Below, piece by piece: positions 2,385 to 31,528 of a stretch of DNA of 45,927 nucleotides. A program made the position numbers and the translations under genes. Origin of the DNA: Acidimicrobiaceae bacterium (lineage in GTDB: Bacteria; Actinomycetota; Acidimicrobiia; Acidimicrobiales; Bog-793); NCBI GenBank assembly GCA_027365385.1, contig DAHXNN010000022.1, positions 1 to 45,927 on the forward strand, given 5' to 3'. Within the stretch, counting starts at the first letter, position 1. Every line of letters starts with the position of its first letter. Under the pieces are notes generated by a model, which was not told the origin of the DNA, ran no database searches, and worked only from the letters and a program-made list of their open reading frames with translations.

Positions 2385-3720
2385 GCGCACGCCGCCCGCG
2401 CCCGACGCTCCTCTGCTCCCGCTCGCCGAGGCGAGGTCCCGGGTCCTCTCGGGCAGGCGCGCTCTCGCACCGCGTCCTCTCGCGCTTCGCGACGCGCTCG
2501 GCTGCGTCACTGCGGCTCCGGTGGTGGCCCGCGAGGCCGTGCCCCCGTTCGCGAACTCCGCGGTGGACGGCTACGCGCTGCGCGCCGCCGACACGGCGTC
2601 GGTCCCGGTGACCCTCGCTGTCGTCGGCTCGACCATGGCCGGCTCCTACCTCGACAGGGCCGTCGGGACCGGCGAGGCGGTGCGGATCATGACGGGCGCG
2701 CCATTGCCACCGGGCGCCGACGCTGTGTGCATGGTCGAGTGGACGACGACCTCCGCGAACGGTGCGCTCGTCACGCTCGGGCGCAGCGCCCGCCCGGGCG
2801 AGTCGATCCGGCACGCCGGGGAGGACGTCGTCGCCGGCCAGGAGGTGTTCCCGTCGGGGACGGTCCTCACGCCGGCGTGCCTCGGGGTGCTCGCGGGCAT
2901 CGGGGAGACGACGGTGCTCGCGGTCCCTCGCCCACGCGTCGGCGTGCTCTCGACAGGTGACGAGCTCTACGACGGCCCGGGACCGCTCCCGAGAGGAGCC
3001 ATCCGGGACTCGAACCGCCTCGCACTTCTCGCGACCGTCGGGCAATCGGGCTTCGACGCCCTCGACCTCGGCCTCGTCCGCGACGACGAGCGCGCCCTCA
3101 GGGCGGCGCTTCTCGACGGTGCGGCACGCTGCGACGCCCTGATGACCTCGGGCGGGGTGAGCGTCGGCGACCGAGACGTCGTCAAGGCCGTGCTCGAGGA
3201 GCTCTCCGGCGGCTCGATGCGCTGGATGCAGGTCGCAGTGCGTCCGGCCAAGCCCTTCGCGTTCGGCGAGATCGGCCCTGGTGCGGTACCGGTGTTCGGC
3301 CTACCGGGGAATCCCGTCTCCGCGATGGTCTCGTTCGAGCTCTACGCGCGGCCGGCGCTGCGCAAGATGGCAGGCCACGAGGTCCTCGGCCGGCCACAGG
3401 TCCTCGCGGTCGCGGACGAGGCTCTCGCCCGTCGCTCCGACGGCAAGCTCCACCTCGTGCGTGTCGTCGCACGGTACGCACCCGACGGCCTCGTCCACGT
3501 GAGGTCCGCGGGTGGCCAGGGCTCGCACCAGCTCCACGCGATGGCGCTCGCGAACGCTCTGGCGTTGCTGCCCGACGGCGCGGGTGTCACGCGCGGAGAC
3601 ACGGTCCATGCGATGCTGCTCGACCCGGGGACGGCGATGCCGCTCGATCCCTCCCTCCCGGACGCGCTCGACACGCTCGGTGCCGGCCCGGCGAGCCGGG
3701 CGAGCGGTGGCGCGCCATGA
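2239..3720 (+). CDS. moeA: molybdopterin molybdotransferase MoeA
   Basis: PPFANSAVDGYALR, TSGGVSVGDRD and GLPGNPVSAMVSFE motifs. Start is uncertain: GTG 2239 is the only canonical start upstream of the conserved N-terminus but overlaps moaE by 146 nt. Homology begins near CTG 2413. Confidence 0.85.
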   Translation: MPRPSRRRVTASTLSRRRCRSGSARRGPAGRTGHRAPERSPRCPTPPAERTPPAPDAPLLPLAEARSRVLSGRRALAPRPLALRDALGCVTAAPVVAREAVPPFANSAVDGYALRAADTASVPVTLAVVGSTMAGSYLDRAVGTGEAVRIMTGAPLPPGADAVCMVEWTTTSANGALVTLGRSARPGESIRHAGEDVVAGQEVFPSGTVLTPACLGVLAGIGETTVLAVPRPRVGVLSTGDELYDGPGPLPRGAIRDSNRLALLATVGQSGFDALDLGLVRDDERALRAALLDGAARCDALMTSGGVSVGDRDVVKAVLEELSGGSMRWMQVAVRPAKPFAFGEIGPGAVPVFGLPGNPVSAMVSFELYARPALRKMAGHEVLGRPQVLAVADEALARRSDGKLHLVRVVARYAPDGLVHVRSAGGQGSHQLHAMALANALALLPDGAGVTRGDTVHAMLLDPGTAMPLDPSLPDALDTLGAGPASRASGGAP

Positions 3721-7287: not shown

Positions 7288-7358
7288 GTCGCCAACGCTA
7301 GTCAGCGCGGCCCGCTCTCGTTGTCGACACAGTCCAGCCCTAGGCACGAGCCGTCCCT

Positions 7359-7397
7359 CGACGCGGGCCAGCCGTCGACGCGGGCCAGCCGTCGACG
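7359..7397. repeat. 17-bp perfect tandem duplication (CGACGCGGGCCAGCCGT x2, plus partial third copy) in the AKR/kdp divergent intergenic region
   Basis: Read directly: 7359-7375 and 7376-7392 are identical, followed by CGACG. Confidence 0.9.
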
Positions 7398-7400
7398 AAC

Positions 7401-7456
7401 TGTTAACGCGACAGGACGAGCCGTTGACATCTCGTTGACGCCCCCGGCGCCAGAGT
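7401..7456 (+). promoter_or_regulatory. candidate kdp control region: helically phased YGTTRAC repeats (possible KdpE boxes) plus a -10-like CAGAGT
   Basis: TGTTAAC (7401-07), CGTTGAC (7422-28) and CGTTGAC (7433-39) have start-to-start spacings of 21 and 11 bp. CAGAGT (7451-56) ends 6 nt before ATG 7463, the geometry of a leaderless transcript. Confidence 0.35.
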
Positions 7457-7462
7457 GCAGCC

Positions 7463-7546
7463 ATGGGTGATCTGCTCGCAGTGATAGGCATCGTCGTCTT
7501 CACGGCCGCGATGCTCGGCCTCGTCTGGGCGTTGGAGCGGGTATGA
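7463..7546 (+). CDS. 27-aa hydrophobic miniprotein, KdpF-like, first cistron of the kdp operon (absent from the ORF track)
   Basis: ATG 7463 ... TGA 7544-46 encodes MGDLLAVIGIVVFTAAMLGLVWALERV, a single predicted TM helix. Its stop overlaps the kdpF ATG (ATGA 7543-46). Confidence 0.5.
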   Translation: MGDLLAVIGIVVFTAAMLGLVWALERV

Positions 7547-7632
7547 CCGCGGTCCAGGCCGTCCTGCTCGTCGTGTCCGTCGTCCTCTTCGCGTACCTCG
7601 GCGTCGCGATGTTCAAGCCGGAGTGGTTCTAG
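7543..7632 (+). CDS. kdpF: K+-transporting ATPase subunit F
   Basis: 29 aa, MTAVQAVLLVVSVVLFAYLGVAMFKPEWF. Matches the KdpF pattern (hydrophobic helix, then Y-L-x-x-A-x-x-x-P-E-x-F). The stop TAG 7630-32 abuts the kdpA ATG 7633. Not in the ORF track. Confidence 0.85.
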   Translation: MTAVQAVLLVVSVVLFAYLGVAMFKPEWF

Positions 7633-9324
7633 ATGGGCTTTCTCTGGACGATCGTCACGCTCGTCGTCGCCCTCGGCCTGACGTGGCGCTACCTCGGCTC
7701 GTACATGGCGGCAGTGTTCGACGGGCGTGTCCATTTCCTCGGCGCCGTCGAGCGCCCGCTCTACAGAGCGCTCGGCACGAGCCCCGACCGAGAGCAGACC
7801 TGGCGCCGATACGCGATCTCTGTCGTCGCCTTCTCCGGCGTCTCCTTTGCGCTCACCTACCTGCTGCTGCGGATCCAAGGATCCCTGCCGCTCAACCCGC
7901 AGCACCTCGGCGCTGTCGGTCCCGCGCTCAGCTTCAACACCGCTGCGTCGTTCCTCACGAACACGAACTGGCAGAACTACGGCGGAGAGACCACCATGTC
8001 GTACTTCTCCCAGATCGGCGCCCTCACGGTCCAGCAGTTCGTGAGCCCGGCGGTCGGGATCGTGGCTGCCATCGCGCTCGTGCGTGGATTCGCGCGCAAG
8101 GAGTCCGCGACGATCGGCAACTTCTGGGTCGACCTCGTCCGCTGCCTGTTCTACGTGCTGCTTCCCATTGCGTTCCTCGCTGGCATCGTCTTCGTCGGCC
8201 AGGGCGCAGTCCAGACGCTCGCGGGGACAGTGAGCATCCACGACGCGATGAACGGCGTCACGCAGACGATCGCGCGTGGGCCAATCGGCTTCATGGAGGC
8301 GATCAAGCAGCTCGGCACGAACGGCGGCGGCTTCCTCAACGCGAACTCCGCCACCCCGTACGAGAACCCGACCGCCCTCACGAACTGGCTATCGATCTAC
8401 CTGCTGCTCGCAATACCCTTCTCGCTCACCTACACCTTCGGCAAGTTGGTCGGCAGCGTCCGTCAGGGCCGGGCGCTCCTCGCCGCGATGGTCCTCATCT
8501 TCGGCGTCTGGGTCGGTTTTACGAGCTACTCCGAGCACCAGGGCAACCCTGCGGTCGCGGCAGCCGGCATCGTGCACCAGCCCACTGGGAACATGGTGGG
8601 CAAGGAGGTCCGCTTCGGCGACACGTCGTCCGCCTTGTTCGCGGTGGCCTCGACGCAGACCTCGACGGGCTCGGCGGACGCCTCCTACGACTCGTTCACG
8701 CCCATGGGCGGCTTCGGGCTGCTGACCGGGATGATGCTCGGGGAGGTGACGCCGGGGGGCACGGGCACCGGTCTCTACACCATGCTTATCTACGCGATCG
8801 TCGCCGTCTTCATCGGGGGCTTGATGATCGGCCGGACGCCGGAGTACCTCGGCAAGAAGATCCAGGCCAAGGAGGTGAAGCTCGCCGGTCTCGGCTCCCT
8901 CGTCATGCCGCTCGTGGTGCTCGTGCTCACGGCCATCGCCGTCTCGGTCCACGCGGGACGGATCGGGCCGCTCAACTCTGGTCCGCACGGCTTCACAGAG
9001 ATCCTCTACGCGCTGACGTCCCAGGGCAACAACAACGGATCGGCCTTCGGCGGGCTCAGCGGCAACACTCCCTTCTACAACGTCGTCGGAGCGATCGACA
9101 TGCTCATCGGCCGGTTCGGGATCATGATCCCGGCCCTCGCGCTCGGTGGGTCGCTCGCCGCGAAGAACGTCGTGCCCGAATCCCTCGGCACGTTCCGCAC
9201 GGACAACACGATGTTCGTCGGCCTCGTCATCGGCGTCATCGTCATCATCGGCGGGCTGACCTTCTTCCCCGCCATCTCCCTCGGCCCGATCGTCGAGCAG
9301 CTGGGCCACGGGAAGTTCTTCTAG
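7633..9324 (+). CDS. kdpA: K+-transporting ATPase subunit A
   Basis: 563 aa polytopic protein with KdpA selectivity-filter-like segments (NTNWQNYGGE, GTNGGGF, SGNT). Correct position in kdpFABC. Confidence 0.97.
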   Translation: MGFLWTIVTLVVALGLTWRYLGSYMAAVFDGRVHFLGAVERPLYRALGTSPDREQTWRRYAISVVAFSGVSFALTYLLLRIQGSLPLNPQHLGAVGPALSFNTAASFLTNTNWQNYGGETTMSYFSQIGALTVQQFVSPAVGIVAAIALVRGFARKESATIGNFWVDLVRCLFYVLLPIAFLAGIVFVGQGAVQTLAGTVSIHDAMNGVTQTIARGPIGFMEAIKQLGTNGGGFLNANSATPYENPTALTNWLSIYLLLAIPFSLTYTFGKLVGSVRQGRALLAAMVLIFGVWVGFTSYSEHQGNPAVAAAGIVHQPTGNMVGKEVRFGDTSSALFAVASTQTSTGSADASYDSFTPMGGFGLLTGMMLGEVTPGGTGTGLYTMLIYAIVAVFIGGLMIGRTPEYLGKKIQAKEVKLAGLGSLVMPLVVLVLTAIAVSVHAGRIGPLNSGPHGFTEILYALTSQGNNNGSAFGGLSGNTPFYNVVGAIDMLIGRFGIMIPALALGGSLAAKNVVPESLGTFRTDNTMFVGLVIGVIVIIGGLTFFPAISLGPIVEQLGHGKFF

Positions 9325-11493
9325 ATGGAGCGCACGGAAATGGACGACGCAGGACAGGTCGACGCAGGACAGGTCGACGCAGGACAGGTCGACACAGGAC
9401 AGGTCGACGCAGGACAGGTTGGGACGGCCAAGGTTGGGACGGCTCAGGTCGAGACGGCACCGAAGGCCTCCGGTCAGGGCGTCGCCCGGTCGCGCAGCCT
9501 GTTCGACCGCGAGATCCTCGCCCAGGCCCTCGGCGGGTCGGTCAGGAAGCTCGACCCCCGTGTCCAGGTGCGCAACCCGGTCATGTTCGTCGTGCTCGTC
9601 GGGACGATCGTCACCTTCGTCGAGGCGATAGCGCACCCGAGCACGTTCAGCTGGTCCATCACGATCTGGCTGTTCCTCACCGTGGTCTTCGCGAACTTCG
9701 CCGAGGCGATGGCCGAGGGCCGAGGCAAGGCTCAGGCAGACACGCTCCGCCGAATGCGCTCGGAGGCCGAGGCTCGACGACTCCGCGCCGACCGCACCGA
9801 GGAGCGGGTAGCGGCGGCGGAGCTCGCCCGGGGCGACCTCGTCGTCTGCGAGGCGGGCGATCTCGTCCCCTCCGACGGCGAGATCGTCGAAGGGATCGCG
9901 TCGGTCGACGAGTCCGCTATCACCGGCGAGTCGGCACCGGTGATCCGGGAGTCCGGCGGCGACCGCTCCGCAGTGACCGGTGGCACGAAGGTCCTCTCGG
10001 ACCGGATCGTCGTGCGCATCACGGCCGAGCGCGGCAAGACCTTCCTCGACCGGATGATCTCTCTCGTGGAGGGGGCGAACCGCCAGAAGACACCCAACGA
10101 GATCGCCCTCACGATCCTGCTCGCGGCGCTCACGATCGTGTTCCTCCCCGTCGTGGTCACGCTGCAGCCCTTCGGCCACTTCTCCGGTGCATCGGTGTCG
10201 GTCGTCGTCCTCGTCGCCCTCCTCGTCTGCCTGATCCCGACGACCATCGGCGCCCTGCTCTCCGCGATCGGCATCGCCGGAATGGACCGGCTGGTCCAGC
10301 GCAACGTGCTCGCGATGAGCGGGCGTGCAGTAGAGGCGGCGGGCGACGTCCAGACGCTCCTGCTCGACAAGACCGGCACCATCACGCTCGGCAACCGGAT
10401 GGCGGCCGCCTTCCTGCCGACGGCTGGTCACACCGAGGAGGAGCTCGCGGACGCCGCGCAGCTCGCGTCGCTCGCGGACGAGACCCCCGAAGGGCGCTCC
10501 ATCGTCGTGCTTGCGAAGCAGCGCTTCGATCTCCGGGAGCGGGAGCTGGCGCCCGACCACGAGTTCGTCCCGTTCTCGGCGAACACGCGGATGTCGGGCC
10601 TCGACATCGGAGGTCGCTCGGTCCGCAAGGGTGCTGCCGAGTCGGTGCGCCGCTGGGCTGTCGAGCAAGGAGGCACCGTCCCCGAGGGACTCGACGAAGC
10701 GGTCGGCCAGGTCGCTCGCGCCGGGTCGACGCCCCTCGTCGTCGCAGACGGTCCGACGATCCTCGGCGTCATCGAGCTGAAGGACGTGGTGAAGCAAGGT
10801 ATCAAGGAGAAATTCGCGGAGATGCGCCAGATGGGCATCCGGACGGTCATGATCACGGGCGACAACCCCCTCACCGCGGCGGCGATCGCAGAGGAGGCCG
10901 GCGTCGACGACTACCTCGCCGAGGCGACGCCCGAGACGAAGATGGAGCTCATCAAGGCCGAGCAGGAGGGCGGCAAGCTCGTCGCGATGACGGGCGACGG
11001 CACGAACGACGCGCCGGCACTCGCGCAGGCCGACGTCGGCGTCGCGATGAACACGGGGACCACGGCCGCGAAGGAGGCCGGCAACATGGTCGACCTCGAC
11101 TCGAACCCCACGAAGCTCATCGACGTCGTCGAGATCGGCAAGCAGCTCCTCATCACGAGGGGGTCGCTCACGACGTTCTCGATCGCAAACGACGTGGCGA
11201 AGTACTTCGCGATCATCCCGGCACTCTTCGTCGCTACCTACCCCCAGCTCAACACGTTGAACATCATGAAGCTCCACTCGCCACAGAGCGCCGTGCTCTC
11301 GGCGGTGATCTTCAACGCTCTCGTCATCATCGCCCTGATCCCCCTGGCGCTTCGAGGCGTGAAGTTCCGCGCGACCGGCTCGGCAGCGATACTCCGCCGC
11401 AACGTCGCCGTCTACGGCGTCGGCGGGATCGTCACGCCGTTCGTGTTCATCAAGCTCATCGACCTCGTCCTCACGGCGCTGCACGCCTACTGA
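9325..11493 (+). CDS. kdpB: K+-transporting P-type ATPase subunit B, with a repeat-containing N-terminal extension
   Basis: DKTGTIT phosphorylation site, [24 protein letters not shown] 9325 directly follows the kdpA stop. There is no alternative canonical start downstream of the repeats. Confidence 0.97.
9346..9450 (+). repeat. 15-nt in-frame tandem repeat (GACGCAGGACAGGTC x5 with 2 single mismatches, then 2 degenerate units) encoding (DAGQV)n in the KdpB N-terminus
   Basis: Read directly: units at 9346, 9361, 9376, 9391, 9406, and degenerate units at 9421 and 9436. Confidence 0.95.
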
Positions 11494-11506: not shown

Positions 11507-12115
11507 ATGCTCACCTACCTCCGCCGATCCGTCGTCATGGCGGCGATCTCGCTCGTCGTCTTCGGCTTCCTCTACGCGCTTGCCGGCACTGGCGTCGCGC
11601 AGCTCCTCTTCCGCCACCAAGCGGACGGCTCGATCACCGCGAACGGCTCGACGCTCATCGGCCAGAGCTGGACGAGCCCGCGGTGGTTCCACGGTCGCCC
11701 CGACGACACCGGTCCCTACGCTGCGAACCCGAAGAAGGGAATCGCGGGTGGCGACAACCCGCTCCTTGCGAACGGCGTGGCCGGCGAATCAGGTGCGACG
11801 AACCTCGGTCCCCGCTCGAAGGTCCTACTCGCCGACACAAAGGCACTCGTCACCTACCGGCACCGGCTCGGCGTCGACCCGACCGAGGACCTCGTCACGA
11901 CCTCGGGAAGTGGCTACGACCCGGACATCACCCCGCTCGACGCGGTCGTGCAGATCCCGATGGTCGCGAAGGCGACAGGCATCTCGCAATCCGCGCTGCG
12001 CCACCTCGTCGCCGCCGAGACCCACGGCGCGGAGCTCGGCTTCCTCGGCAGCAGCTACGTCGACGTCCTCCAGCTCAACGAGGGGCTCGCGCGCCTCGAG
12101 CGGGCTGGGCACTGA
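11507..12115 (+). CDS. kdpC: K+-transporting ATPase subunit C
   Basis: N-terminal TM helix, then FRHQADGS...GSTLIGQSW...F.GRP and ...SGSGYDPDITP motifs typical of KdpC. Confidence 0.95.
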   Translation: MLTYLRRSVVMAAISLVVFGFLYALAGTGVAQLLFRHQADGSITANGSTLIGQSWTSPRWFHGRPDDTGPYAANPKKGIAGGDNPLLANGVAGESGATNLGPRSKVLLADTKALVTYRHRLGVDPTEDLVTTSGSGYDPDITPLDAVVQIPMVAKATGISQSALRHLVAAETHGAELGFLGSSYVDVLQLNEGLARLERAGH

Positions 12116-12128
12116 CACGGCATCGCCC

Positions 12129-12458
12129 GTGCGCCACGAGCCGCCCCCACCCGAGCCGGGGCACCGCCCGCCCTCCGCGTCGCCCGGGCCGGCCCGGGCC
12201 ACGCGGGTCGCCGACGCGATCCCCCGGCGCCCGCTCTCTGTCCACGGCGTCGTCACCGCGGTCACCGTGCGCGAGGCGACGGGACCCGTCCTCGACGCGA
12301 CCCTCGACGACGGCACGGGAGTCGTCGAGCTCACCTTCTTCGGGCGACGGTCGGTGCCCGGGATCGTGCCCGGGGCATCCGTCGCGGCCGAGGGCGTCGC
12401 GCTCCTCGCCCACGGGCACCTCACCCTGCTCAACCCCCGCTACCGGTTCACAACCTGA
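12129..12458 (+). CDS. small OB-fold (nucleic-acid-binding-type) domain protein with a Pro-rich N-terminus
   Basis: SVHGVVTAVTVREATGPVLDATLDDGTGVVELTFFGRRSVPGIVPGASVAAEGV resembles actinobacterial OB-fold proteins. GTG 12129 is the first start after the kdpC stop. The upstream part of track ORF 11580..12458 is out-of-frame overlap. Confidence 0.6.
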   Translation: MRHEPPPPEPGHRPPSASPGPARATRVADAIPRRPLSVHGVVTAVTVREATGPVLDATLDDGTGVVELTFFGRRSVPGIVPGASVAAEGVALLAHGHLTLLNPRYRFTT

Positions 12459-13213: not shown

Positions 13214-14736
13214 GGCACCTCCGCGTGGCGACGGGCGCGCGGAAGCGTGAACGCGAACCGAGCACCACCGCCGCGACGCTCGGCCGCGGTGATCGTCCCG
13301 CCGTGAGCCTCGACGAAGGCCTTTGCGATCGTCAGACCGAGCCCTGCCCGCCCTCCACCCGCTCCGTTGCGGCTGAACATTGCGAAGACGCGCTCGCGAT
13401 CGCCCTCGGCGACGCCTGGGCCGCGGTCCTCGACGGCGACCTCGACCGCGCCGCCAGCGGCGCGGGCGGAGAGCTCGACCGCTGTCCCGTCCGGCGCATA
13501 GCGGCCCGCGTTCTCGATGAGGTTGACGAGCACCTGGACGGCGAGAAGGTGGTCGACCCAGACGGCGGGCAAGGTGAGGGGGAAGGAGGTCGAGACGCGA
13601 CCCGGCCATCCCGGGCCGAGCACGACGAGCGCCTCGGAAAGCAGCTCCTCTACGGTCGTCTCCCCGAGGTCGAGCCGGAGCGCTCCGGCCTCGATCTGCG
13701 CCATGCCGAGGAGGTTCGCGACGAGCCTCTCGAGCCGGTCCGCCTGCGCCTCGACCAGACCGAGCAGCTCCTGCTCGTCCTCGCGGCACAAGGAGACGTC
13801 GTCGCTGCGCAGATCCGACACGGCCGCCTTCACCGTGGCGAGCGGCGTGCGCAGGTCGTGCGAGACCGCACCGAGCATCGCCCGACGCCACCGATCCGCC
13901 TGCTCGAGGCGCTCGCTGCGCTCGGCCCGGCTGCGGAGCTGCTCCCGTTCGATCGCGAGCGCCGCGTGGTTCGCGAAGGTGCGCAGAAGCTCGAGCCCGT
14001 GCGCGCCCGGCACCACGCCGGCGACGGCCAGGATCCCGACGGGGCGACCCGCGACGCCGAGAGCCAGAGCGACCGTGCCGTCGGCGCCGGACGGTGGGAC
14101 GGCTCGGCTACGGACCTCACCGCCCGAGGGAGACACGGCGCTGAGCTCGTCGCCACGAAGCGGCGCTCCGGCCCACGCCGCGACGTCGAGACCAGCTGCC
14201 GAGGGCGGCTCGCGACCGGCCAGCCCGCTCCTGTCGTCGGAGGAGGCCGGGAGGAGCAGGGCAACCGAGCGGAGATCGAAGACCTCGTGGACCGTCGTGA
14301 CGACGAGGTCGAGCAGCTCGGCGAGTGGCGTCTCACCGATGAGCACGTCGGAGAGCTCGAGCAAGGTACGCGCGTCGTCCTCCCGGTGGCGCGCCTCCGC
14401 GCGCGCGGCTGCGAGGCGCGCCACGATACGGGCGACGACGAGCAGGACGGCGACGTAGACCCCGAGCGCCACCCAGTTCTCGCCGGCACCGACCGACAAG
14501 GTCCCGTAGGGAGGGATGAAGAGCAGGTCGTAGACGAGGAAGCCGACCGAGACAGCGAGCACCCCTGCCGCGAAGCCCCCCGTCGCGACAGCGAGCACGA
14601 CGGGCACCACGAGGACGAGAGCAGCCGTCGCGACACCGACGTGCGAGCGGAGCGGCATCATGACGGCGCTCACCACTGCGTCCCCGGCGACCGCCGTAAG
14701 CGCCCCGAGAACAAAACGTCTCGATTGTCCACTCAC
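13210..14736 (-). CDS. kdpD: KdpD C-terminal half: 4-TM (DUF4118-type) + GAF + HisKA + HATPase sensor kinase
   Basis: Four N-terminal TM helices, H-box AMLGAVSHDLRTPLA, N-box NLIENAGRYAP, DRGPGV, GLGLTIAKAFVEAHGG. A strong SD (GGAGAGGAG) lies 7 nt upstream of GTG 14736. It lacks the KdpD-N/Usp domains. Confidence 0.9.
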   Translation of the reverse strand: MSGQSRRFVLGALTAVAGDAVVSAVMMPLRSHVGVATAALVLVVPVVLAVATGGFAAGVLAVSVGFLVYDLLFIPPYGTLSVGAGENWVALGVYVAVLLVVARIVARLAAARAEARHREDDARTLLELSDVLIGETPLAELLDLVVTTVHEVFDLRSVALLLPASSDDRSGLAGREPPSAAGLDVAAWAGAPLRGDELSAVSPSGGEVRSRAVPPSGADGTVALALGVAGRPVGILAVAGVVPGAHGLELLRTFANHAALAIEREQLRSRAERSERLEQADRWRRAMLGAVSHDLRTPLATVKAAVSDLRSDDVSLCREDEQELLGLVEAQADRLERLVANLLGMAQIEAGALRLDLGETTVEELLSEALVVLGPGWPGRVSTSFPLTLPAVWVDHLLAVQVLVNLIENAGRYAPDGTAVELSARAAGGAVEVAVEDRGPGVAEGDRERVFAMFSRNGAGGGRAGLGLTIAKAFVEAHGGTITAAERRGGGARFAFTLPRARRHAEVP

Positions 14737-14783
14737 GGCGCGCTCCTCTCCCCCAGGCTAGCGGTGCGGGAGGTCCGGGGGGC

Positions 14784-14853
14784 GCTCGACGCTCGACGCT
14801 CGACGCTCGACGCTCGACGCTCGACGCTCGACGCTCGACGCTCGACGCTCGAC
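14784..14853. repeat. perfect heptanucleotide tandem array (GCTCGAC)x10 in the divergent intergenic region between the two KdpD halves
   Basis: Counted unit by unit from 14784 to 14853: ten identical copies with no interruption. Confidence 0.97.
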
Positions 14854-14865
14854 AACAATGGCGGC

Positions 14866-16035
14866 ATGCACGATGCGATGTACGCGCCGGACGACGAGCA
14901 GGTCAACCCGACCGGGAGGTTCCGCATCTACCTCGGCGCGGTCGCAGGTGTCGGCAAGACGTGCGCGATGCTCGACGAGGGGTGGCGCCGGCACGAGCGG
15001 GGCGGAGACGTGGTCGTCGGGTTCGTGGAGACCCACGGCCGGGCGCACACCGTCGAGCAGCTGCGCGACCTCGAGGTGGTACCGAGAAAGCACGCCGGGC
15101 ACAGGGGCGCTGACTTCGAGGAGATGGACCTCGATGCCATCCTCGAGCGCCGACCGGAGATCGTCCTCGTCGACGAGCTCGCCCACACGAACGTGCCGGG
15201 CTCTGGACGCCACGAGAAGCGCTGGGAGGACGTCGTCGAGATCCTGGACGCCGGCATCGCGGTGGTGAGCACTGTCAACGTCCAGCACCTCGAGAGCATC
15301 GCCGACGCGGTCGAGCAGATCACCGGCGTCGCGGTCCGTGAACGCGTCCCGGACTGGGTCGTCCGCCGGGCAGACCAGCTCGAGCTCATCGACTCGTCGC
15401 CCCAACAGCTGCGCCGGCGCATGATGCACGGCAACGTCTACCCACCGGACAAGGTGGAGGGCGCGCTCGCCGGCTTCTTCCGCACCGAGAACCTCGTGGC
15501 GCTACGCGAGCTCGCGCTCCGCTTCGTGGCCGACGAGACCGAGGAGGAGCTGCTCGCCTACCTCGAGAGCCATCACCAGACGGCCGTCTGGGACACGAGC
15601 GAGCGCATCCTGGTCGCGGTCACCGGGGCACCGGGGACACCGGGCGTCGTCCGGCGCGCAGCGCGGATCGCTGCTCGCGTGAAAGCAGAGCTCCACGTCG
15701 TCCACGTCGTCACGGACGCCACGAGCTCCGGGGCGAGGCACACGATCGACGAGGTCCACCAGCTCGCGGACGACGTCGGAGCGACATGGCACGACGTCTC
15801 CGGGGACGACCCCGCTCGCACACTCGTGAGCTTCGCCTCAGAGCACCAGATCACCCAGATCGTGCTCGGCTCGAGCCGCCGGGGGCGCTTCGAGGAGCTG
15901 ACGCGCGGATCCGTCGTGAGCCGCGTGCTCCGCTTCGCCGCCGAGGAGGGCGTCGACGTGCACGTCATCGCCCGCCGGGATCACTCTGAGCAGCGGGATC
16001 ACTCTGAGTCGGCCGGGGCCGCCGAGATCACCTGA
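14866..16035 (+). CDS. KdpD N-terminal half as a stand-alone protein: KdpD-N (Walker-A-like) domain + Usp domain
   Basis: RIYLGAVAGVGKTCAML, VDELAHTN, VSTVNVQHLES, SPQQLRRRMMHGNVY (KdpD-N), then the Usp-like ILVAVTGAPG...ELHVVHV...IVLGSSRRGRF. It ends with its own stop. AACAAT (14854-59) lies 6 nt before ATG 14866. Confidence 0.88.
   Translation: MHDAMYAPDDEQVNPTGRFRIYLGAVAGVGKTCAMLDEGWRRHERGGDVVVGFVETHGRAHTVEQLRDLEVVPRKHAGHRGADFEEMDLDAILERRPEIVLVDELAHTNVPGSGRHEKRWEDVVEILDAGIAVVSTVNVQHLESIADAVEQITGVAVRERVPDWVVRRADQLELIDSSPQQLRRRMMHGNVYPPDKVEGALAGFFRTENLVALRELALRFVADETEEELLAYLESHHQTAVWDTSERILVAVTGAPGTPGVVRRAARIAARVKAELHVVHVVTDATSSGARHTIDEVHQLADDVGATWHDVSGDDPARTLVSFASEHQITQIVLGSSRRGRFEELTRGSVVSRVLRFAAEEGVDVHVIARRDHSEQRDHSESAGAAEIT
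15976..16011 (+). repeat. 18-nt in-frame tandem duplication (CGGGATCACTCTGAG+3 nt, x2) encoding RDHSEQ/RDHSES at the C-terminus of the KdpD-N protein
   Basis: Read directly: 15976-15993 and 15994-16011 differ only in the last 3 nt. Confidence 0.9.
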
Positions 16036-16074: not shown

Positions 16075-16923
16075 CTACCACGACGCAGTGGCCCGGGCCG
16101 AGTACCGGCCAGATGAGCGCTCCACGCGGACCGCGAGACCGAAGCACGCGCTGAGCGGCGCGTCCGCGAGGACCTCCCCTGCGGGGCCAGACGCGACGAC
16201 CCGACCTTCACGGAGCAGCAGCGCATGGCTCGTCGCGGCCGGAAGCTCCTCGAGCGTGTGAACGACCTGCACGACCGCGGGCGCATCGTCTCGCGCGGCC
16301 AGGGTGTCGAGGGCGTCGACGAGGGCCTCGCGCCCGGGCAGGTCGACCCCTGCAGCCGGCTCGTCGAGGAGGAGGAGGCCGTGCCGGCCGAACAACGAGC
16401 GCGCGAGCAGCACGCGCTGCCGTTCGCCCTGCGAGCAGCTCTCGAAGGCCTGGTCGGACACGTGCCCACAGTGGAAGCGCTCGAGCAGCTCACCGGCCTC
16501 GCGGAGCTCGGCGGAATCGAAGCTCGCCCACCAGGGAGCAAGGATGCCGTCCCTCCCGGTGAGCACGATCTCACGGGCGGTCACGTGCCCGGGGAGGCGA
16601 CCGGCGACGCTCTGGCCGACGACACCGATCCTCGTGCGCAGCGCCCGGAGATCCGTGCGGCCGAGACGCTCGCCGAGCACTGTGGCCTCACCTGCGCTCG
16701 GGTGGCGCACCGCCCCGATCAGCGAGAGCAGCGTCGTCTTCCCGGCACCGTTGGGCCCGAGAAGGGCCCAGTGCTCACCGCCGCCCACCGAGAGCGTCAC
16801 GGGCCCGACGAGGCGCCTCGCCGCTGCCTCGACGGTCACCCCGGAGAGCTCTACGACGACCGCGCTCACCTCAGGTGGCCACCCGGCGCACGGCCACCCG
16901 GCGCACGGCCACCGGGTGGCCAC
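16075..16923 (-). CDS. ABC transporter ATP-binding protein (single NBD, YlmA/ModF-like), no permease gene adjacent
   Basis: Walker A GPNGAGKTTL, signature SQGERQRV, Walker B LLLLDEP. Alternative start GTG 16869 (VSAVVVELSGV...) would exclude the WPCAG-WPCAG repeat. Confidence 0.88.
   Translation of the reverse strand: MATRWPCAGWPCAGWPPEVSAVVVELSGVTVEAAARRLVGPVTLSVGGGEHWALLGPNGAGKTTLLSLIGAVRHPSAGEATVLGERLGRTDLRALRTRIGVVGQSVAGRLPGHVTAREIVLTGRDGILAPWWASFDSAELREAGELLERFHCGHVSDQAFESCSQGERQRVLLARSLFGRHGLLLLDEPAAGVDLPGREALVDALDTLAARDDAPAVVQVVHTLEELPAATSHALLLREGRVVASGPAGEVLADAPLSACFGLAVRVERSSGRYSARATASW
16877..16906. repeat. 15-bp perfect tandem duplication (GGCCACCCGGCGCAC x2), followed by a third partial copy and GGTGGCC/GGCCACC palindromic arms
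   Basis: Read directly. Located between the yceI stop and the conserved start of the ABC ATPase. Confidence 0.9.
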
Positions 16924-29744: not shown

Positions 29745-31385
<1,641 letters not shown>

Positions 31386-31487: not shown

Positions 31488-31493
31488 GCGCCC

Positions 31494-31528
31494 GGGCGTC
31501 GGGCGTCGGGCGTCGGGCGTCGGGCGGC
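31494..31528. repeat. heptanucleotide tandem array (GGGCGTC)x4 plus one imperfect unit (GGGCGGC), immediately upstream of the chdC promoter -10
   Basis: Counted directly. The array ends 3 nt before TACACT (31532-37), which ends 6 nt before GTG 31544. Confidence 0.95.

Follow-up and report, generated by a model that had tools for sequence, protein, structure and literature searches.

How a perfect heptanucleotide repeat came to lie between the two halves of a potassium sensor gene, and whether it controls their expression, is the question raised by a 45,927-nt high-GC stretch of DNA (the window) from an uncultured Acidimicrobiales bacterium. Here the N-terminal and the histidine-kinase half of KdpD are encoded by divergent genes, and the spacer between their starts holds ten uninterrupted copies of GCTCGAC. 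This array is a real, fast-changing simple-sequence repeat, the copy number of which differs among close strains. With a probability of about 70%, we read it as a promoter tandem repeat generated by slippage, i.e., as a length-variable spacer between back-to-back promoters, the effect of which would be nil or at most graded. The sequence comparisons presented below do not show the array to be more than such a spacer; a contribution to regulatory tuning is possible.

The ten identical units at 14784-14853, as read from the sequence, agree with a preliminary description of this DNA. Tandem Repeats Finder reports the repeat at 14783-14853 with a period of 7, 10.1 copies, 100% matches and a score of 142, and the two-unit 14-mer, allowing one mismatch at most, gives 9 overlapping matches within the array, whereas dinucleotide shuffles average 0.51 matches and never exceed 4. 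Short head-to-tail units far above chance are what defines a simple-sequence repeat or variable-number tandem repeat (VNTR). The array takes up 70 bp of the intergenic spacer, as stated earlier, although the spacer itself is 129 bp long (14737-14865) and not 130 bp. On the right, the array directly adjoins the hexamer AACAAT, which is followed by GGCGGC and by the start codon ATG 14866, and on the left, it ends 32 bp from the Shine-Dalgarno sequence GGAGAGGAG of the kinase gene; the preliminary description had given the same right-hand geometry and about 30 bp on the left. An explanation by a hairpin or slipped structure was rejected, as single-stranded DNA of either strand of the array folds no better than its shuffles (z = 0.33 and 0.96).

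Since the window is a metagenome-assembled contig and perfect repeats longer than k can be mis-sized by assemblers, a short-read assembler could have made the copy number or even the whole array, but this is very improbable. In the sequencing run X1, the flanks of which are 100% identical to the window, the 31-mers of the array form a 37-nt loop contig with a word depth of 58.6 compared with 9.97 in the flank, and the estimate n = 58.6/9.97 + 4.14 predicts about 10 units. Arrays at the same site also occur in independent NCBI/ENA assemblies and in Logan contigs. Assembly did not create the copy number of the window. Run X2, a sediment metagenome of 2025, has flanks nearly identical to the window at 14700-14920; its loop depth is 197.9 and its flank depth 16.2, which would correspond to about 16 units, and thus to a possible longer allele, if this locus were the sole contributor; identical 31-mers from other organisms may contribute. 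The right-hand junction CTCGACAACAATGGCGRCATGCA had 0 matches in a scan of JGI metagenome contigs.

Close strains were found via the members of a 90% protein cluster in independent NCBI/ENA assemblies, and Logan contigs supplied other alleles; all were read from metagenome assemblies or k=31 contigs. While the window carries ten units, the strains L130, L131 and L001, with 98.25% nucleotide identity to it, have four (three GCTCGAC and one CCTCGAC). The L133 group at 94.8% identity has six partly degenerate units (GCTCGgC, GCTCGAC, aCTgcAC, GCTCGgC, GCTCGgC and GCTCGAC), L135, also at 94.8%, has eight, and L132 has eight in another order. Four units were found in the Logan contigs X4, X5 and X7 and three in X6, which shares the single-nucleotide polymorphism pattern of X5 and belongs to the study that also yielded X4 and X5. 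The flanks of the variant alleles are 94.6-98.3% identical to the window. The strains L133-L138 are mutually 99.6-99.95% identical over 21 kb, yet they carry two array alleles, of six units and, in L135, of eight; the second eight-unit allele, that of L132, is outside this comparison. Such whole-unit differences among close relatives with conserved flanks are typical of a VNTR, and the suspicion of VNTR character voiced in the preliminary description is thus borne out by alleles of 10, 4, 3, 6 and 8 units and a second 8-unit allele; invariance of the copy number among relatives, which it had named as grounds for abandoning the idea, is not what the comparison found. A two-unit (14-bp) step, as might be read from the even-numbered assembly alleles 4, 6, 8, 8 and 10, is ruled out by the three units of X6. 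In the short or degenerate alleles, designated B to E, no 30- or 31-mer occurs more than once, and therefore a clonal sample is expected to assemble straight through them. Contigs of the runs X8 and X3 branch inside the array, in X8 with branch depths of 38.7, 16.6 and 10.2 compared with 40-46 in the flanks, which suggests that alleles co-exist within one sample, as far as metagenome contigs can stand for clone reads.

The spacer was compared in relatives down to about 68% protein identity, and a strict search for a -10 hexamer and start codon was run over 80 homologous loci. Only two spacer elements persist. One, on the side of the gene for the N-terminal half (kdpD-N), is a hexamer whose second base is A and whose last two are AT, followed by exactly 6 nt and by ATG or GTG: AACAAT, GGCGGC and ATG in the window, GACAAT, GGTCGA and GTG in L141, GAAGAT, GGTCGC and ATG in L003, CACAAT, GGAGCC and GTG in L144, and GAGAAT, GGCGCG and ATG in L148. 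The pattern is retained down to about 65-70% protein identity. NA(N)AAT with 6 nt and an in-frame ATG or GTG was found at eight of the ten closest homologous loci, and all 80 loci together have 18 in-frame occurrences of the pattern and a single one out of frame, whereas the remaining spacer diverges. The distance between the -10 hexamer and the start codon is an established sign of leaderless transcripts in actinobacteria, and here a hexamer with A at position 2 and T at position 6 stands about 6-7 nt before the start with no Shine-Dalgarno sequence. The KdpD-N mRNA therefore appears to be leaderless, with a transcription start that would be set by the conserved hexamer, and the leaderless geometry proposed in the preliminary description gains from this conservation. 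A search for RNA runs by which the starts could be mapped returned none. The other element, on the kinase side, is a TANNNT hexamer about 18-32 nt ahead of the start codon, with a Shine-Dalgarno sequence after it; the hexamer reads TAGCCT in the window and TAACAT, TATCGT, TAGCGT, TAGACT, TAACGT or TAACCT in relatives. Neither a conserved -35 motif on either side nor a conserved upstream site was found among the relatives compared. A sigma-70 consensus scan of 14600-15000 gave no promoter, which is uninformative since the conserved hexamers have no canonical -35 element.

The sequence next to the KdpD-N hexamer points to the origin of the repeat. Relatives without the array carry CTCGGC or CTCGGG directly 5' of this hexamer. 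These bases probably seeded the (G)CTCG(A/G)C unit, and slipped-strand expansion of an ancestral CTCGG(C/G) motif is the probable source of the array. The array is non-coding and would lie upstream of both transcription starts, reaching from -13 to -82 in the KdpD-N promoter of the window, with its other end 23 bp from the putative -10 hexamer of the divergent kinase-kdpE operon. In every allele it covers -13 to at least -33 with three units, and to -40 with four. Because the units are identical and no allele found has fewer than three, both core promoters would be unchanged by the gain or loss of a unit, and only the distance between the two back-to-back promoters would be altered. The distance from one -10 hexamer to the other is 24-32 bp in L143, L144 and L153, which have no array, 52 bp in L130, 66 bp in L133, 80 bp in L135 and L132, and 93 bp in the window. 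We infer that unit changes would have no phenotypic effect, or no more than a graded shift in the balance of the KdpD halves, as opposed to on/off switching. Two proposals of the preliminary description are not supported by this geometry. It envisaged an on/off switch acting through the -35 region, but the array adjoins the -10 hexamer and always fills -13 to at least -33, which would leave the core unaltered; and it held that each unit change rotates upstream sites, but no conserved upstream site that could be rotated was found, and relatives have their two hexamers anywhere from 24 to 93 bp apart. With the starts placed as above, the array lies neither within an open reading frame (ORF), nor between -35 and -10 elements, nor in a structured untranslated region (UTR), i.e., at none of the places where a unit change alters expression in a phase-variable contingency locus.

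Several points weigh against the array being a mere product of slippage between two promoters. Both promoters are presumed from their conserved hexamers, and with alleles taken from metagenome assemblies and k=31 contigs, the differences recorded are those between strains and samples, which would be at most a hint of instability within a clone. The ten perfect units of the window compared with the shorter, degenerate sister alleles could reflect selection for expansion rather than drift, and the independent tandem duplications at the same promoter elsewhere could hint at selection on the spacer. The main rival reading is a contingency-type locus, at which 7-bp slippage steps would change the promoter spacing and thereby shift the ratio of KdpD-N/Usp to histidine kinase/KdpE expression. 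The E. coli counterpart of KdpD-N inhibits KdpFABC, the histidine kinase/KdpE half activates kdpFABC, and the outcome of such tuning would be a heritable yet reversible heterogeneity in the control of the K+ pump. We consider it unlikely, though it accounts for several observations: the hypervariable copy number, with three versus four units in one lineage and study and mixed branches in one sample, the position of the array exactly between the two conserved -10 hexamers, and the independent duplications at the KdpD-N promoter of other lineages. Moreover, the presumed transcription starts would be about 118 bp apart here, compared with about 50-58 bp in relatives that lack the array, a range that could span competing and non-competing pairs of RNA polymerases, and precedents are the (ATCTTTC)n repeat of hmw1A, which gives graded expression (PMC12721329, PMC8262952), and the promoter repeats of M. 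tuberculosis (PMC12817950). However, the array does not lie in a -35/-10 interval whose spacing could change, the spacer length is unconstrained in relatives (24-93 bp) with no conserved upstream site, and neighbouring repeats without an obvious regulatory position vary equally or more. Across 13 lineages, three tandem arrays were counted in this spacer compared with 0.6 expected (P = 0.02), a count that includes the window, which was chosen for its array; the enrichment is weak, is not significant without the window, and is not relied on here. A bolder version is slightly less likely still: in this free-living acidophile, slippage would set from cell to cell the spacing, and with it the interference or coupling, of the leaderless KdpD-N and the kinase/KdpE promoters, the set-points of the K+ pump would be spread heritably yet reversibly within a population, and the recurrent independent duplications of other Acidimicrobiales would stem from selection for the ratio of the two halves.

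An array of binding sites, for KdpE or another OmpR- or SARP-type winged-helix regulator on heptamer direct repeats, or for a protein recognising TCGA as the preliminary description suggested, is highly unlikely. Its minus-strand unit TCGAGCG is, we presume, of the kind of heptamer bound by SARP-type regulators; TCGAC is similar to GTTGAC, which is directly repeated upstream of kdpF, and OmpR-family regulators do bind direct repeats. Yet TCGA and TCGAC are lost in most units of the degenerate sister alleles, TCGA in four of the six units of the six-unit allele (GCTCGgC, aCTgcAC), and the heptamer is missing from relatives at 84-86% protein identity, which together make a TCGA-site array improbable. 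The same array also occurs at unrelated loci in many unrelated phyla, and SARP operators consist of two to three heptamers with 4-nt spacers and 11-bp phasing (PMC5930380), unlike the contiguous 7-bp period found here. These operators share with the array the heptamer direct repeats in an actinobacterial promoter region, but they are conserved in orthologous promoters, whereas the array varies in number and is degenerate or absent in relatives. Still less credible is translation through the array, from GTG 14764 or from the start of a 936-aa ORF, by which it would be read as (STLDARR)n and unit changes would act as a frameshift switch. The in-frame position of GTG 14764 relative to ATG 14866 and the reading as (STLDARR)n stand as first described, no frame of the array contains a stop, and a public gene call (P0123, 936 aa, 13225-16035 on the plus strand of this contig) runs antisense through the kinase gene, then through the array and kdpD-N. 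As a real start, GTG 14764 is not supported, because the array is 28 and 14 bp shorter in the six- and eight-unit alleles than in the window, which breaks the frame, while the 389-aa proteins downstream remain at least 90% identical to that of the window (the same 90% cluster); an N-terminal extension through the array is thus not conserved. The geometry of -10 hexamer, 6 nt and start is conserved at ATG 14866, the left flank has no plus-strand codon periodicity, and the 936-aa ORF is antisense to a kinase gene with clear Pfam domains. The call P0123 is a gene-calling artefact. An exact look-up in public proteins gave no match for the 389-aa product, the product from GTG 14764 or the kinase.

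The features of the locus are collected in Table 1. The Pfam domains bear out the earlier view that the array is flanked by two halves of KdpD. A chain with PF02702 and Usp is encoded apart from a chain with transmembrane (TM), HisKA and HATPase domains, and KdpE, kdpFABC and a KdpB with the TGES serine motif (residues 200-203) are all present. KdpD-N, which has the Walker B motif VDELAH, is putatively the stand-alone serine-kinase half of a split KdpD, as predicted from its domains. Homologues of about 390 aa with the same KdpD-N/Usp composition number in the thousands, those with a source name are mostly from Acidimicrobiales, and the divergent order of the two halves is kept in relatives. 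A two-chain KdpD, in which a KdpD/Usp serine-kinase chain is separate from a TM/GAF/DHp-CA histidine-kinase chain, is already known (PMC11018627); the domain split is identical, and the TGES motif of KdpB is found here too, but the commonest hosts in that study are Acidobacteriota and Chloroflexota, whereas the form described here occurs in Acidimicrobiales, with back-to-back divergent genes. The closest public proteins are named "MAG: ... Acidimicrobiales bacterium", and the runs that contain the sequence are mostly metagenomes of mine drainage, tailings and sediment. Between kdpC and kdpE, 12129-12458 encodes a 109-aa small OB-fold protein with a weak Pfam match to tRNA_anti-codon; in close relatives, the gene call at this position has 107-119 aa, in some of them with the same Pfam match.

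Table 1. Features of the split kdpD locus and its surroundings; positions refer to the window.
Feature	Position	Strand	Basis or remark
kdpF	7543-7632	+	
kdpA	7633-9324	+	ORF
kdpB	9325-11493	+	ORF, 722 aa
kdpC	11507-12115	+	ORF
kdpE-type OmpR-family response regulator, 226 aa	12533-13213	-	start overlaps kinase stop (GTGA)
Histidine-kinase half of KdpD, 508 aa	13210-14736	-	Pfam: DUF4118 (membrane domain), HisKA, HATPase_c
Shine-Dalgarno GGAGAGGAG of kinase half	14743-14751	-	6 nt (CGCGCC) from AGGAG core to GTG 14736; kept in 94-98% identical relatives
TAGCCT, putative -10-like hexamer of kinase-kdpE promoter	14755-14760	-	TANNNT conservation
Unique 23-bp left flank, kinase -10 hexamer to array	14761-14783	.	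G-run in flank varies by 1 nt in relatives
(GCTCGAC)x10, perfect heptanucleotide array, promoter tandem repeat/VNTR	14784-14853	.	sequence, Tandem Repeats Finder, shuffles, alleles in relatives
AACAAT, putative -10-like hexamer of KdpD-N promoter	14854-14859	+	sequence and conservation
kdpD-N gene, 389 aa	14866-16035	+	Pfam: KdpD (PF02702, E 6e-92) and Usp

The array is not special within its lineage, as other nearby tandem repeats vary as well. In a 21-kb alignment of the window with eight relatives, indels of at least 4 bp fall at about six sites and are mostly changes in tandem-repeat length. The spacer that separates the stop of yceI from the start of an ABC ATPase gene holds 2.5 copies of the 15-bp VNTR GGCCACCCGGCGCAC (16877-16913); in relatives, a related 15-mer adds as much as 58 bp here, in blocks of 14, 14 and 30 bp, and this site is more variable than the heptamer array, differing in length between 99.95% identical strains. 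At the N-terminus of KdpB (9345-9458), the in-frame 15-bp repeat CGACGCAGGACAGGT occurs in 5 copies, which encode (DAGQV)5, and is followed by 2.9 copies of a related 15-mer. In relatives at 94.8% identity, 75 bp of this repeat are absent and KdpB is called with 692 aa, compared with 722 aa in the ORF of the window, from a start 15 bp past the kdpA stop. In the region upstream of kdpF (7351-7465), the 17-bp direct repeat TCGACGCGGGCCAGCCG (7358-7397, 2.4 copies) differs in relatives, and GTTGAC-N5-GTTGAC at 7423-7439, with 11-bp phasing, is a candidate KdpE box. In the same region, CAGAGT and 6 nt precede ATG 7463 in a leaderless geometry like that of KdpD-N; this ATG opens a conserved hydrophobic ORF of 27 aa (7463-7546), the stop of which overlaps the kdpF start (ATGA). 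Another heptanucleotide repeat of the window, likewise perfect, is (CGGGCGT)x4.9 at 31493-31526, which is intergenic and lies just past a terminator-like hairpin downstream of groEL (29760-31385).

At the KdpD-N promoter of other lineages, duplications of different kinds are found: a 15-mer in 2.9 copies that includes the start codon in L003 (3995-4038; also in L004), a 14-bp duplication in L143 (about 2455-2489) that takes in the start codon and leaves the first ATG out of frame, degenerate 11-mers in L141 (2434-2493) that end in CGAC and adjoin the -10 hexamer, and two copies of CGGCGAG adjoining the -10 hexamer in L148 (about 2440-2453). The duplications in L141, L003, L143 and L148 hint at a mutational or selective hot spot, the enrichment not being robust. 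The unit itself is widespread, since (GCTCGAC)n with n from 4 to 26 was found at no fewer than 119 loci in unrelated high-GC phyla, with no kdp genes beside any of them. Most of these other loci have at least one flank without coding periodicity, and a -10 hexamer with a leaderless start adjoins 2.1% of the arrays versus 1.9% of the controls, i.e., there is no enrichment. In L042, the metagenome-assembled genome of another member of Acidimicrobiia, 3510-3600 holds (GCTCGAC)x4, (GCTCCC)x3, TAGCCT, 6 nt and ATG, with the array about 27 bp upstream of this leaderless-type start; the gene is unrelated.

The array of the window is a further case of the known class of intergenic heptamer repeats and promoter tandem repeats. 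A simple-sequence repeat shared by divergent promoters is familiar from hifA-hifB of H. influenzae, where (TA)n lies between both -35/-10 pairs of overlapping promoters and a change of one unit switches expression; the array resembles it in being shared by divergent promoters but lies outside any spacing-sensitive -35/-10 interval. Bacterial heptameric repeats are over-represented, intergenic and variable in length between relatives, and polymerase slippage has been proposed as their source (PMC4692102). Those of Xanthomonas and Nostoc share with the array the 7-bp unit, the intergenic location, and the variation of both length and sequence in close relatives, but they are G-rich, capable of forming G-quadruplexes and organised in genome-wide families, whereas GCTCGAC contains no G-runs and the 45.9-kb window holds one such array. 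In H. influenzae, the (ATCTTTC)n repeats of hmw1A and hmw2A have a graded effect on expression (PMC12721329, PMC8262952). They are likewise perfect arrays of about ten or more 7-bp units upstream of a gene; the hmw repeat, however, is part of the transcribed 5' UTR and works via an RNA hairpin and RNase III, whereas the array apparently lies upstream of both starts, folds no better than shuffles, and stands next to a regulator instead of a surface adhesin in a free-living host. The promoter tandem repeats of M. tuberculosis vary in copy number among lineages and within populations (PMC12817950). They are also actinobacterial, located in promoters, different in copy number and obscured by short-read assemblies; there, the variation was measured in isogenic cultures and tied to phenotypes, while the array has a 7-bp unit and is known from differences between strains and samples of uncultured Acidimicrobiales alone.

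The length variation alone makes the array a strain-typing marker for this Acidimicrobiales lineage of mine drainage. In annotation and assembly, the array calls for caution, since a 936-aa ORF was called through the repeat and k=31 assemblies break there. Repeat-based tuning of expression is known mostly from host-adapted pathogens and, recently, from M. tuberculosis. If the array does modulate its promoters, such tuning would extend to an environmental actinobacterium and to a signalling module instead of a surface antigen. The alleles of 3 to 10 units would then be a natural allelic series for the balance of the split KdpD, with which the tuning idea could be tested directly using reporters and long reads.

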